Source: a virus | Lineage: Duplodnaviria > Heunggongvirae > Uroviricota > Caudoviricetes | IMG/VR virus record: IMGVR_UViG_3300029998_000021 | Reading direction: 5' to 3' (one strand) | DNA length: 14,699 nucleotides | Made by a program: the position numbers and the translations under genes | The notes under the pieces: model-generated | Told to the model about the DNA's origin: nothing | What the model saw: only the letters and a program-made list of their open reading frames with translations | Database searches by the model: none | Part shown: positions 7,769-12,634 of the stretch, piece after piece | Numbering within the stretch: the stretch's first letter is position 1 | How the letters are laid out: every line of letters starts with the position of its first letter

Positions 7769-10160
7769 AAGAATTTAATTTATCAAATACTGATTTAAAT
7801 CTATCTAACTGTGAATCAGATAATTTAGAGCCGTCAACAAGACGATTTTCAGTGATTAATTGTTTTGAAGGTTTTTCGTTTGTATACCTTTCTAAATCTC
7901 TACTAAACCAGAAACTCTCAAATTTTTGTACTGTATCTAAGGCAGGGAATAATCTTGAAGATGTCAAGATTTGGTTTTTTACATTTGTGTCGAGTTTTTC
8001 CCAAATTGGTGTTAATTCTGATGGCATTGCATCAAGTAATAATTCATTAAATGACTTTTTCTTTGGAGAAAGAGCTTCATTGATGATTGATAAAACTTGT
8101 GCTTCTGAAGTGTACTTACCTTCGCTTTCTTTTAATGCGATTTTAACTTTAACTTTATCGTCATTACTTAAGTTATAATAAGCTGTTTTTCTCTTTTCTG
8201 TTAAGAACATCAAGAAATGTGGTTGATCTGTTTCTGAAGCTTTACGTTTTTTAGTTTCAAGGATCAAAGTATTTAAATTTTCTGTTAATCTGTTTTGAAC
8301 GTTTGTTAATCTGCTACCAAGTCTAGTAACTTTAGATTCATGAACCTCAACTTCTGGTTGTGCACCTTCAGCATCAGGAACGTCTAATTTAACAACAATC
8401 ATTCCATTTTGAGGATTAGTTGCTTGAACTTCACCTGTTTGATCACCAATAGCGACAGTTTCGCCAGGAGATGGCATACCTGTTACTTCACCTTCACCAG
8501 TATCTGTAAGAGCTGGTTCTTCAGTTGTTGGCTCAATTGGTTCTTCTGTTGGTAATTCTCCATCAGGTTCTCCGTCTTCAACTGGTTCTTCAACACCTTC
8601 TTCGCCTGTTGGTTCTTCGGTTGTTGGTTGATCTACAGTTGGTTCAGCTGTTGGTTCAGCGGTTGGTGTAGTTGCTGGTTCTTCATAATATTTATTAACA
8701 TCAACGTCGTCATCTTCATTAATAAATTGGAATTTACTTTCAAGAACTTTTCCAGTTTTTAAATGTTCTGTTAAAAGTTTTGAACCTTCAATAGTTTTAT
8801 CTAAACTTTCTGCAATATAATTAGTATAAGCCATTGCATCGTCTAGATTTTCAGCAATATACTCTGAATAAGAGATATTATTATCTACATGTTCTGCAAT
8901 ATATTCTGAATAAGCAATATTATTATCAAGATTTTCGGCTATATACTCTGAATAAACAATAGAGTTATCAAGATTTTCTGCTAAATATTCTGAATAAACA
9001 ATTGAATTATCAAGATTTTCTGCTAAGTATTGTGAGTACTCAATTGAATTGTCAAGATTTTCAGCGATATACTCTGAATAATCAATAGTTTTATCAAGAT
9101 TTTCAGCGATATATTCTGAATATTTGATATTTTTGTCAACATGTTCTGCAATATATTCTGAAAAGTCAATATTTTTATCCAAGGTTTCAGCGATATATTT
9201 ACCATAGTCAATAGATTTGTCTAGAGTTTCAGCTAAATACTCAGAATAATCACTTACTTTTTCTAAACTTTCAGCAAGATAGTCGTTGTGCTTAATTAAA
9301 TCGGTTGTAGTTTTTCTCAACTCAGCATTTTCTTTAACAACAATTGTCAAATTTTCTGCTAAATAATCTAAGTATTTGCCGATTTTTGTTTGTTGTTCTT
9401 GTAATTTTTCATAATAGCCTAGCATATCATTTAACTTAGAAGGATCAAAATCGCCTTTTGTTTTAATGGCTTCATTGATATTACCTTTGAATTTTTCAAT
9501 TTCTTCTGTTAAATAATTTGAATACTCAAGCATTTGTTTTTTGGTTACAAAGTCTTCATTCATTTTAAATAATTCATTAATTTTTGACTCGTCGGATATA
9601 TCATATACCCTAAAGTTGGCTGATTCATTAAATCCCAAACTTTCATTTAACGATTTAACTTCCATTCGTGCTGAACTAAATCCTGGATCAGCAACGGCAT
9701 CATAAGTAAATAACTTTTTAACAGTTACTGTTCCATCTGATTCTGTGATACCCGCAGCTCGAGACGACACGAAAATAGGACAACCATCATCAACAAGTGC
9801 TTTAGCCTCTTTACCCCAATGGGTATTAAGCAATCTAATTTCACCTTTAACTACGTTAGTTTCTTTAACGAAAAAGGCTTTTTCAATTGTGTGGGAAACT
9901 CTTGATAATGAAGTGTCAAAAACATCTGGGTGGTCAAATTCTCCATAAACAACTCCTAACTGATTCTTACGACTTATTAATTCGTTCAAGTGAGGGAGGA
10001 ACTTATCAGCAGTATATATCCTATCATTACGATTTTTGATATTGAATTCTGTGAATGTCCCTTCTAAAATGTACTGTCTATCTTTACCATTAGTAATAGA
10101 AGAGTGTTCATTTAGTTTTAGACCGTCCATGCAATGTTCTACAATAAGGACTGGTTTCAT
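7767..10160 (-). CDS. gp21: Prohead protease (gp21-like) fused to prohead core/scaffold (gp22-like), 797 aa from the ATG at 10160
   Basis: YILEGTF..FNIKNRNDRIY, GEFDHP (catalytic His), FVSSRAAG (catalytic Ser) and YDAVADPGF match T4 gp21 motifs. A long acidic coiled-coil/repeat region follows in the gp22 position. The track start at 10205 runs through the promoter, so MKPVL at 10160 is the likelier start. Confidence 0.88.
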   Translation of the reverse strand: MKPVLIVEHCMDGLKLNEHSSITNGKDRQYILEGTFTEFNIKNRNDRIYTADKFLPHLNELISRKNQLGVVYGEFDHPDVFDTSLSRVSHTIEKAFFVKETNVVKGEIRLLNTHWGKEAKALVDDGCPIFVSSRAAGITESDGTVTVKKLFTYDAVADPGFSSARMEVKSLNESLGFNESANFRVYDISDESKINELFKMNEDFVTKKQMLEYSNYLTEEIEKFKGNINEAIKTKGDFDPSKLNDMLGYYEKLQEQQTKIGKYLDYLAENLTIVVKENAELRKTTTDLIKHNDYLAESLEKVSDYSEYLAETLDKSIDYGKYIAETLDKNIDFSEYIAEHVDKNIKYSEYIAENLDKTIDYSEYIAENLDNSIEYSQYLAENLDNSIVYSEYLAENLDNSIVYSEYIAENLDNNIAYSEYIAEHVDNNISYSEYIAENLDDAMAYTNYIAESLDKTIEGSKLLTEHLKTGKVLESKFQFINEDDDVDVNKYYEEPATTPTAEPTAEPTVDQPTTEEPTGEEGVEEPVEDGEPDGELPTEEPIEPTTEEPALTDTGEGEVTGMPSPGETVAIGDQTGEVQATNPQNGMIVVKLDVPDAEGAQPEVEVHESKVTRLGSRLTNVQNRLTENLNTLILETKKRKASETDQPHFLMFLTEKRKTAYYNLSNDDKVKVKIALKESEGKYTSEAQVLSIINEALSPKKKSFNELLLDAMPSELTPIWEKLDTNVKNQILTSSRLFPALDTVQKFESFWFSRDLERYTNEKPSKQLITENRLVDGSKLSDSQLDRFKSVFDKLNS
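8790..9293 (-). repeat. Twelve in-frame 42-nt (14-aa) tandem repeats, consensus xYSEYIAENLDxxI
   Basis: KHNDYLAESLEKVS, DYSEYLAETLDKSI, DYGKYIAETLDKNI, DFSEYIAEHVDKNI, KYSEYIAENLDKTI, DYSEYIAENLDNSI, EYSQYLAENLDNSI, VYSEYLAENLDNSI, VYSEYIAENLDNNI, AYSEYIAEHVDNNI, SYSEYIAENLDDAM, AYTNYIAESLDKTI. Confidence 0.95.
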
Positions 10161-10232: not shown

Positions 10233-10281
10233 ATTTAAAATGAAAAAACCAGATTTTTAATCTGGTTTTTTCATTTTAAAT
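10233..10281 (-). terminator. Long perfect inverted repeat, intrinsic terminator ending the portal/183-aa transcript
   Basis: ATTTAAAATGAAAAAACCAGA (10233-10253) pairs perfectly with TCTGGTTTTTTCATTTTAAAT (10261-10281). The CCAGA/TCTGG core is followed by T6 on both strands, and one arm overlaps the stop at 10276. Confidence 0.85.
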
Positions 10282-10827
10282 TGTATTCATAAAATCATCA
10301 ATATCATCATCAGTTTTCTTTATTACTACATTTTTAGGTTTTTTAGTAGTTTTAGTGTTGCTTTTTATTTCTACTTTTGTAGCAACTAATTTTTTATTTT
10401 CTTTTACTTCTTTTATCATTTCTTCAAGTGAAGGCTGTTTAAAAATTTCTTTTACTTCATCTTCTTTAATCTTTTCCAAAAATGCGGCATTTTCATCATC
10501 AGATTTTTTCATTTCTTCTTCAAAAGAATTTTCAGATTCAATTATTAATATTTTTTCTTTGACCCATTCTTCACTAAAATATGGGATGTTGTCTTCATTT
10601 ACAATATGCAATAAAGTTTCTGCTATTTCTGCTCTTTGAATTTTAGTTTTTTCTTCATTCTCAGTGTTAATGTCATATTTATAACCAGGAATCTTCAATT
10701 TTTTTAATTCGTTATCAATTATAACTTCATAATAATTATCGTTCTCACCTATAAATTTTTCTACATCTTCAATATCAAATATTTCATTGTGATATAAAAT
10801 TGATACTATTCTTCTATCTATACTCAT
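10276..10827 (-). CDS. Acidic/Lys-rich hypothetical protein in the T4 gp67/gp68 position, containing a segment paralogous to the portal C-terminus
   Basis: Lies between portal and protease. RAEIAETLLHIVNEDNIPYFSEEWVKEKIL aligns with portal RAEIASTLSSNLQDAEGKPYLSIEWIVRNIM. Confidence 0.7.
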   Translation of the reverse strand: MSIDRRIVSILYHNEIFDIEDVEKFIGENDNYYEVIIDNELKKLKIPGYKYDINTENEEKTKIQRAEIAETLLHIVNEDNIPYFSEEWVKEKILIIESENSFEEEMKKSDDENAAFLEKIKEDEVKEIFKQPSLEEMIKEVKENKKLVATKVEIKSNTKTTKKPKNVVIKKTDDDIDDFMNTI

Positions 10828-10843
10828 TATATTAAATTATTTT

Positions 10844-12634
10844 TTAAAATTCTGTACTACCTTGTGTTTGGCCTCCACCTTGTGCTTGCCCTCCGCCTTG
10901 TGCACCACCTTGTGCACCACCTTGTGCGCCACCAGTTTGTGGTGCTTGAGCCTGTCCACCTTGAAGGTTCTGTCCTCCACCCATTTCACCCTGAGGACCA
11001 CCCATTTCACCACCAGGTCCTCCCATATCAGGCATACTCATATCGCCGCCACCGCCTCCACCGAAGCCACCGCCACCACCGCCTTCACCTGGTGATGCTA
11101 GTCCGCTCATCATCTTATATTTATTATTAGATTCTATATCTTTATCAGTAAATTTCATAATATTTCTAACAATCCATTCAATACTTAGATATGGTTTACC
11201 TTCAGCATCTTGTAAATTGCTTGATAAAGTTGATGCTATTTCTGCTCTCTTAGATAAATTATTTAAATATTTCCATTCTTCAAATAAGTCATTAGAATTA
11301 AATTTCAATTTAATATAACTATCAAAAATTCTATCTTGTTCTAATTCAGGAAAATCTAAAACCATTTGAATTTTTAATGGTTTAACCAATATTTCTTTAA
11401 ATAAAGTCCTTAATCTATTAACAAAAGTCTTAAATCTAATTTCATCCATTGTTAATGATGATGTATCATCATAAAAAGCACCACCACCACTATCTTCATC
11501 TAATCTGGAAAATGGCATTTTAGATGCTCTTTTCAAACCTTTATAAAACCATTGAAGAGTAATATCTTCATTCAATTCTGCTTGTTGTGGTTGCTCAATA
11601 GTCATTTCTGGAGTACCAGCTTCTGATTGTGGAAACCAATAATCTTTTGAATGTGGTATTTTAGTTGATCCATTTATATAAGGAATACCAGTTCTATCAT
11701 CCCATTCGATATCTTCATGATATTCACTCATCAACTGTTGAATTTGTTGCTCTGCTTGTTGACGAGTTAAGCCACCAACAGGAATAATAAATTTTTTATA
11801 AATAGATGCTTGATTTAAATTATACATTAATTTTGTAAATTCTAATAATTTAAGTTGATTATAAGGTTTAATAAGTCCCTCAACATAAGATGTTTCATCA
11901 TAATCTAAGTTATTAGAATAGGAAATATAAATAATATTAGCATCTAATAATACTCTTCTTAATTGTGGAATATCTGGATTTTGAATCCAAACAACTGTAC
12001 CAGTTCCTGGCTCAGCAGCTACAATAAGAGTAAGTGGATCCAATAAGTTAAGGTCAATAATATTTTTTTGATTATCATCATAAACAATTTCAAACGCTAA
12101 AAATCCATCAATTAAAAATGTTTTCATATAATTCCAAGCTGTTAAGCCATCATTAAAATTAAACGCATTATAAATTCTTCTGAAATTCTCTTGGTATTTA
12201 GCTCTAATAGTTTGATCATAACTATCTGGTAAATCGGTTAAACTGCAAAAATAATTATCATCATCATACATTACCGCTTCTTCAGCAATTCTTGTAACAT
12301 AATCTTTTATTTCCTCTTTAATAGCATATTGATGTAAAATTTTTCTTTTATCTAAATATCTTCTATCTAAATATGCAATTGATTTCTTCTCTAATATTTT
12401 AGATATTATTTTCTTTGTGAATAAATCATACATATTTGTACCTGGCTCATAAAGCAAATTACTAGTATCTTGAAATGCGCCAACTGCTTGACTATTCTTA
12501 ACTACCATTTCTTGATCATCCATTCCAAAATTGCTCAATCTTTTTAGTAATTTATTACCAAAACTTCTTCCTACATTTCCTTTACCAAACTCATACATTG
12601 AATTTGGTTGATTATATCTGTTGTATGTTGCCAC
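10844..12634 (-). CDS. gp20: Portal protein, T4 gp20-like (GTG start, Gly/Gln-rich tail)
   Basis: IKPYNQLKLLE (T4 IKPANQLKLLE), KDYWF, QWFYKGLKRASKMPFSRL (T4 RWFRQALYMALRVPLSRI), TMDEIRFKTFVNRLRTLFKEILVKPLK (T4 [27 protein letters not shown]). Confidence 0.95.
   Translation of the reverse strand: MATYNRYNQPNSMYEFGKGNVGRSFGNKLLKRLSNFGMDDQEMVVKNSQAVGAFQDTSNLLYEPGTNMYDLFTKKIISKILEKKSIAYLDRRYLDKRKILHQYAIKEEIKDYVTRIAEEAVMYDDDNYFCSLTDLPDSYDQTIRAKYQENFRRIYNAFNFNDGLTAWNYMKTFLIDGFLAFEIVYDDNQKNIIDLNLLDPLTLIVAAEPGTGTVVWIQNPDIPQLRRVLLDANIIYISYSNNLDYDETSYVEGLIKPYNQLKLLEFTKLMYNLNQASIYKKFIIPVGGLTRQQAEQQIQQLMSEYHEDIEWDDRTGIPYINGSTKIPHSKDYWFPQSEAGTPEMTIEQPQQAELNEDITLQWFYKGLKRASKMPFSRLDEDSGGGAFYDDTSSLTMDEIRFKTFVNRLRTLFKEILVKPLKIQMVLDFPELEQDRIFDSYIKLKFNSNDLFEEWKYLNNLSKRAEIASTLSSNLQDAEGKPYLSIEWIVRNIMKFTDKDIESNNKYKMMSGLASPGEGGGGGGFGGGGGGDMSMPDMGGPGGEMGGPQGEMGGGQNLQGGQAQAPQTGGAQGGAQGGAQGGGQAQGGGQTQGSTEF
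10847..11092 (-). repeat. Gly/Gln/Met-rich low-complexity portal tail with GGAQ x3 (12-nt) repeats
   Basis: PGEGGGGGGFGGGGGGDMSMPDMGGPGGEMGGPQGEMGGGQ...GGAQGGAQGGAQGGGQAQGGGQTQGSTEF, visibly the most GC-rich stretch of the window. Confidence 0.9.

Follow-up and report, generated by a model that had tools for sequence, protein, structure and literature searches.

The viral record IMGVR_UViG_3300029998_000021 (Caudoviricetes) contains a phage head module, and the whole stretch of it analysed here, 14,699 nucleotides in length, is called the window; its head-module genes all lie on the minus strand. The portal gene (10844-12634, minus strand) encodes a T4 gp20-type protein of 596 aa and is followed, after a 16-nt spacer, by a gene of 183 aa, here termed ORF183 (10276-10827, minus strand), recognized from the list of open reading frames (ORFs) and its translation. 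Next come a hairpin, a gene for an 812-aa protein in which a gp21-like protease is fused to a scaffold rich in repeats, and then a gene for a 606-aa gp23-like capsid protein. Residues 63-99 of ORF183 (10531-10641, minus strand) are, by pairwise and profile alignments, an old in-frame copy of a helix-loop-helix from the crown of the neighboring portal, lodged in a cassette that related phages exchange.

The initial annotation proposed that the gene after the portal contains a duplicated piece of the portal's own C-terminal domain, and this part of it is borne out, given that ORF183 residues 63-99 match portal crown residues 461-498. The two peptides that it compared are present with 13 of 31 residues identical and one gap, and the DNA at 11224-11248 is identical to that at 10611-10635 at 23 of 25 nt. 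By itself, the significance of the window pair is marginal: the BLASTP E value is 4e-4 for the single comparison, and the Smith-Waterman score of 62 is equalled in 24 of 2000 shuffles of ORF183 and in 4 of 2000 shuffles of the portal (p 0.002-0.016). Shuffled controls at the level of the family give a clear separation. A profile of the eight closest ORF183 homologues aligns to seven portals with an hhalign probability of 91%, an E value of 1.2e-6 and a score of 52; the maximum in 400 column shuffles is 25.4, and reversing the portal gives 12. When eight cassettes of the crown type, taken from several clades, are aligned to an independent set of 30 portals, they match portal 447-502 over 56 columns (probability 96%, E 2.4e-9). 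The distant homologue P0036, which is 37% identical to ORF183 overall, matches residues 447-500 of its own neighboring portal (54 residues, p 5e-7), with identity at 25 of 51 aligned positions (E 4e-10); an extension of this match back to portal 417-446 is not significant by itself (p 0.55-0.59).

Chance or convergent similarity without common descent could be argued from the marginal statistics of the window pair and from its AT-rich, Glu/Lys/Ile-rich composition. It is scarcely credible, given that the profile scores far exceed those of 400 shuffles and that distant members such as P0036 match better than the window does, so that the profile and distant-member tests already contradict it. 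In addition, the ORF copies share derived features, and the similarity is specific to the portal of this clade. The generic Pfam model Portal_T4 (PF07230) finds the window portal at E 6e-63 but gives no match to ORF183 and seven other family members, even at E<=1, and the best cassette identities (KRAEIAS.L and G.PYLS..W) are peculiar to portals of this clade. The cassette was therefore copied from the portal gene of this lineage.

The portal itself belongs to PHROG 213 and matches PDB entries 3JA7 and 6UZC at E 1e-28, which allows the copied segment to be placed on a known structure. In T4 gp20 the crown spans residues 451-524, the clip 279-358, and the stem 255-278 and 359-377 (PMC4493910). 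The portal segment that represents the source-type sequence of the ORF183 cassette (aa 461-498; 11141-11254, minus strand) aligns by HMMER to T4 gp20 residues ~460-496, within the crown, and corresponds to helix alpha10, a loop and helix alpha11; it is almost invariant in related portals. The AlphaFold2 model of ORF183 has a helix at 53-73, a loop, and a helix at 86-94. The ORF183 segment is a true paralogous copy of the alpha10-loop-alpha11 unit of the crown.

The copy is old. Where the ORF and the portal share a residue, they use the same codon just as often as codon usage predicts in five of six ORF/portal pairs, and amino-acid identity is 41-49%. Synonymous sites have been randomized yet this identity is kept, indicating that the copy has not evolved neutrally. 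The ratio of nonsynonymous to synonymous substitution rates (dN/dS), estimated among five alleles of the crown type, is 0.09-0.36 in the N-terminal domain, 0.14-0.76 in the crown core and 0.35-0.79 elsewhere, and the value for the crown core is below 1 in 10 of 10 pairs. The window pair is the exception in codon identity, with 12 of 13 identical residues using the same codon versus 7.4 expected from window codon usage (p 0.0035), and 15 of 17 identical codons over a longer alignment; the excess is absent in the five other pairs. A variable region of a diversity-generating retroelement was also considered and rejected, because nucleotide identity between the two segments, portal and ORF183, is only 61-62% (56 of 90 over the span of the initial annotation; 0.61 over a 37-codon alignment) and they differ by all kinds of change.

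Homologues of ORF183 number 27 in a 90%-clustered database, and an exhaustive scan with HMMER finds 64 clusters. The family gene always lies between a T4-type portal gene and a protease/scaffold gene, in one megaphage clade, and the order of portal, optional homing-endonuclease gene, ORF, protease/scaffold and major capsid protein is kept in nine related loci (L005-L011, L016 and L017). It is present beside portals at least 75% identical to that of the window, and absent beside portals of 60-66% identity. In some relatives a DUF7487 homing-endonuclease-like gene, which the window does not have, is inserted between the portal gene and the ORF183 homologue (L006:4202-5014, L008:4202-4996 and L009:997-1791). 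The gap without a family gene that follows a 66%-identical portal in L015 (5262-5697) holds an apparent remnant of the C-terminus of a similar gene.

Members of the family range from 98 aa, with no middle whatever, to 271 aa, and the alignment divides ORF183 into conserved ends and a variable center. The N-terminal domain (aa 1-52, MSIDRRIVSILY...KLKIPG..Y; 10672-10827, minus strand) is the family hallmark, with 16 invariant columns in or adjoining it, and is predicted by AlphaFold2 to form a helix and three strands, with predicted local distance difference test (pLDDT) values of 82-88. The hypervariable middle (aa 53-100; 10528-10671, minus strand), in which the crown-like piece sits, has a length of 0 to ~150 aa across the family and cannot be aligned family-wide. 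It is followed by a conserved acidic helix, SFEEEMKK..FLEKIKE (aa 101-123; 10459-10527, minus strand), kept in nearly all members. A disordered Lys/Thr-rich basic linker and a conserved acidic-aromatic tail, DDDIDDFMNTI, complete the protein (aa 143-183; 10279-10401, minus strand; family alignment and AlphaFold2); pLDDT is below 50 for residues 142-167, and D178 and F179 are invariant. Given the dN/dS of 0.09-0.36 in its N-terminal domain, ORF183 is a real gene, encoding a lineage-specific, modular, small head-module protein.

The initial annotation called ORF183 a portal-derived mini-protein, a description that is too broad. Only ~37-54 residues of the exchangeable middle are portal-derived, and neither the N-terminal domain nor the tail has significant portal similarity; the N-terminal domain also lacks significant similarity to any known fold. 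Searches with the AlphaFold2 model of ORF183 by Foldseek against PDB, in the VIA wide search and against BFVD stayed within noise, with a best Z of 4.7 and a best E of 0.006, and weak BFVD rows labelled "portal" or "capsid assembly" are not significant.

Most homologues lack the crown-like piece, which is present in ~8-11 of ~80, an outcome that the initial annotation had itself named as refuting its reading. At E<1e-4, a hidden Markov model of the portal crown detects the piece in 8 of 80 members, and three further cases are weak or partial, for ~10-14% of the family. A different piece of the portal occupies the same slot in P0046, P0041, P0025 and P0026, for example at L011:6001-6513 and L012:860-1453 (P0046 and P0041). 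The hhalign probability is 97% (E 6.7e-11), and the L011 ORF matches the clip piece of its own portal with p 9e-8. The source-type sequence of these clip cassettes in the window portal is aa 270-313 (11696-11827, minus strand), which on the T4 map begins in the last part of stem helix alpha5 and continues through the first clip strand and the clip helix. Residues N291-K296 at the clip tip of T4 gp20 contact the packaging ATPase gp17 (PMC4493910), and portal 270-313 covers the positions aligned to them.

A portal origin for the conserved N-terminal domain as well is doubtful. Its best local portal alignments fall at portal 229-272, collinear with the clip piece in P0046, with p values of 0.10-0.15 that are not significant alone; hhalign gives E 0.13-0.19 at inconsistent places, and the fold predicted for the domain, a helix with three strands, is at odds with the stem helix of the portal. 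The language-model neighbors of residues 1-56 are portal fragments with scores of 0.79-0.82, a level that shuffled sequences often reach.

Other members carry middles of different kinds. The middle of L027:2501-3076 is similar to the coiled-coil part of the protease/scaffold gene that lies downstream on the same contig (L027:4661-4903; tblastn E 8e-4), which may reflect coiled-coil composition only. In L028:2501-3292, L029:2501-3316, P0051 and P0079, there is an insert of ~150 aa of unknown fold, and P-I-E-T repeats, which vary in number, precede the basic linker. What seems to follow the family N-terminal domain in P0039 (L033:103-855) and P0048 (L034:30-734) is a GNAT acetyltransferase domain (PF00583, 49 bits) in one case and a hydrophobic, tape-measure-like stretch in the other; both have a fitting context upstream, the end of a homing-endonuclease-like gene or of a portal gene.

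Exchange of the middle is most directly seen by comparison of the window to L005. Outside of the cassette, the two differ at only three positions over ~6.4 kb (99.95% identical), and 114 of the 117 differing alignment columns over 6.66 kb are packed into 10500-10799, the middle of ORF183. The exchanged tract spans ~10529-10732 in the window and L005:1200-1450, and the two are again identical from the acidic helix (10459-10527) onward, which serves as the 3' anchor of the exchange. The break-points fall in the conserved KLKIPG and SFEEEMKK flanks. The cassette of the L005 type ("type B") has no relation to the portal or to the crown cassette. These patterns indicate that homologous recombination, with the conserved flanks as anchors, carries the cassette from phage to phage. 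In a poorly resolved tree of the N-terminal domain, from which the number of capture events is not countable, crown carriers are spread over four or more clades and clip carriers over two. Given that the crown copies share derived states, such as IL where the portal has IM, a single origin of the crown-type cassettes followed by shuffling is suggested.

The same comparison bears on the function proposed in the initial annotation, by which the crown copy would let ORF183 act as a functional mimic of the crown, either co-assembling with portal subunits or capping them, and so nucleate the core of the scaffold or regulate how the portal is incorporated. The cassette is truly homologous to crown helices that face the head interior, and the gene is co-transcribed with the portal gene and adjoins the protease/scaffold gene, as this model would have it. 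The motif, though, is confined to a small part of the family, a nearly identical phage has an unrelated cassette in its place, and some members have no middle, so that the crown copy is not required for scaffold nucleation or portal incorporation and an essential nucleation role is excluded for the cassette. Moreover, the closed 12-mer ring of the crown leaves no free homotypic interface. A complex prediction for portal 60-515 with ORF183 scored 0.08 relative to a mark of 0.32, which gives no verdict either way. Overall, the mimic model is improbable, and as a required role it fails.

The main alternative is a neutral passenger, an explanation that is possible though less probable than the one favored below. 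By this account, the crown and clip pieces came from the neighboring portal gene through local illegitimate recombination or template switching, perhaps in repair after cuts by homing endonucleases, and persist as fossils in a disordered, tolerant spacer without any mimicry or docking role. The cassette is absent in most members, is swapped in the 99.95% identical sibling and has no counterpart in the 98-aa members; constraint is weak, with dN/dS up to 0.76; and homing-endonuclease-like genes lie exactly at the portal/ORF junction in relatives. A passenger would not be expected to keep 41-49% amino-acid identity over randomized synonymous sites, or dN/dS below 1 in all pairs. Both captured pieces are also in frame and in sense orientation, each corresponds to a surface through which the portal interacts (the crown or the clip tip), and the crown-like piece is predicted to retain its helix-loop-helix.

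The reading that we favor, with a probability of about 0.55, is that ORF183 is a packaged prohead-core or portal-proximal accessory protein with the middle as an optional payload. The conserved ends would do the targeting and the middle would be dispensable; a crown-like payload may give affinity for the portal inner face or for partners of the portal, again as an option. This reading is based on a position and composition that resemble T4 gp67 and gp68, and on an architecture that resembles the internal proteins of T4. Several points weigh against it. Presence of ORF183 in the prohead or virion, and its binding to the portal, are features that we infer. ORF183 has no sequence or fold similarity to gp67/gp68, to portal binders of the SPP1 gp7 type, or to any solved structure. 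The crown copy is only weakly constrained, and the estimates of this constraint are noisy, as they come from 34 codons. The codon excess of the window pair may mark a small, recent patch of gene conversion, rather than only an old event, or may be chance after six tests. The GNAT and tape-measure-like payloads each occur on a single contig of less than 900 nt (888 nt for GNAT), one with less than 1x coverage, and could be assembly chimeras.

A more speculative proposal is an arms-race module, in which a conserved carrier, composed of the N-terminal domain and tail and expressed with the portal, would display swappable mimics of exposed portal surfaces as decoys or competitors; these surfaces are the crown and the clip tip, which docks terminase and neck proteins. 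The mimics might titrate host immune sensors of portal proteins, such as the Avs4-type STAND proteins and RAZR, or might tune the docking of terminase and neck proteins. RAZR is cited among the host sensors that recognize portal proteins (PMC13017515). Such a module would account for the exchange of cassettes between otherwise identical phages; it is nonetheless a long shot, less probable still than the crown mimic.

The T4 core proteins gp67 and gp68 are encoded between portal gene 20 and protease gene 21, and gp68 is non-essential (PMC9958956). The initial annotation was correct that these proteins hold the same map position and are unrelated, as no sequence similarity to the ORF183 family was found: the family hidden Markov model, compared to T4 gp67, gp68, gp21, gp22 and gp20, gives a best E of 0.036 that is due to compositional bias. 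Like ORF183, gp67 and gp68 are small and have acidic and basic low-complexity halves (acidic, basic and an acidic tail in ORF183). Co-transcription of ORF183 with the portal gene is a further point of resemblance. Unlike ORF183, gp67 and gp68 contain no significant portal-like segment (best BLASTP E 0.25), and they lack the conserved, predicted-folded N-terminal domain and the conserved C-terminal tail. We know of no swappable cassette in T4 gp67 or gp68.

The T4 internal proteins (IPI-III and Alt) resemble the ORF183 family in architecture, with a conserved terminal module or modules joined to a diverse, exchangeable payload in a head-associated gene; packaging and cleavage of ORF183 would have to be presumed for a closer match. 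One payload of the family may be an enzyme, as Alt is, given the GNAT domain on the single 888-nt contig. The capsid-targeting sequence of the T4 internal proteins is a cleaved N-terminal peptide of ~10 residues, whereas the conserved N-terminal module of ORF183 is a domain of 50 residues. To our knowledge, no internal protein has a payload copied from the portal. SPP1 gp7 and Mu F (PF04233), minor head proteins that bind the portal, are, like ORF183, encoded directly downstream of the portal gene, and portal association is plausible for ORF183; their size and architecture are different, and ORF183 has no Pfam or PHROG match. The T4 gp20-type portal shares with the cassettes the alpha10-loop-alpha11 unit of the crown or, in other members, the stem end, the first clip strand and the clip helix. 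Only 37-56 residues are common to ORF183 and the portal, and ORF183 has no wing-stem-clip-crown fold and cannot form a portal.

Few phage proteins are more conserved than portals. Here, a small, rapidly evolving gene beside one of them has captured two different exposed portal surfaces in one variable slot that is traded between nearly identical phages. A full-text literature search found no relevant description of partial portal paralogues, and the capture of two portal surfaces in one recombining cassette of a portal-adjacent gene appears to be undescribed. If the copies are functional, they would be peptides that naturally mimic portal interfaces, with which portal assembly, the docking of terminase or host sensing of portals could be probed. 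If they are not, the locus cleanly illustrates, in nature, how in-frame pieces of an essential neighbor gene seed new coding sequence in an accessory protein.

ORF183 and the portal gene share one transcription unit, as indicated by the 16-nt gap between them and the strong hairpin after ORF183. The terminator scan finds this hairpin as a perfect 23-bp stem with A/T tracts on its flanks (10234-10280, neither strand assigned), which overlaps the last codons and stop of ORF183 and has an RNA folding energy of -26.2 kcal/mol (z -8.5). It looks like a bidirectional, terminator-like element that closes the portal and ORF183 unit before the protease/scaffold gene. Joining of the portal to ORF183 by stop-codon readthrough or recoding was considered and rejected: the portal ends in TAA, ORF183 is in another frame after the 16-nt spacer, and the spacer has further stops. 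Among public phage records, the closest are those of uncultured megaphages (634-735 kb), with the Lak phages more distant. The record that contains the window is 25.7 kb long, and the search for paralogues in the phage's own genome was confined to that length.

The end of the portal gene (window 10850-11100) encodes a Gly/Gln-rich tail of ~85 residues, built from short DNA repeats, that finishes in an invariant terminal Phe (..STEF). T4 gp20 likewise ends in ..QEDF, and the tail of ORF183 has its invariant Asp-Phe, such that an acidic-aromatic C-terminal peptide common to the portal and the ORF183 tail is possible. The protease/scaffold gene also has internal DNA repeats (window 8754-9284), which are seen as off-diagonal BLAST hits ~70-75% identical at offsets of ~126 nt.

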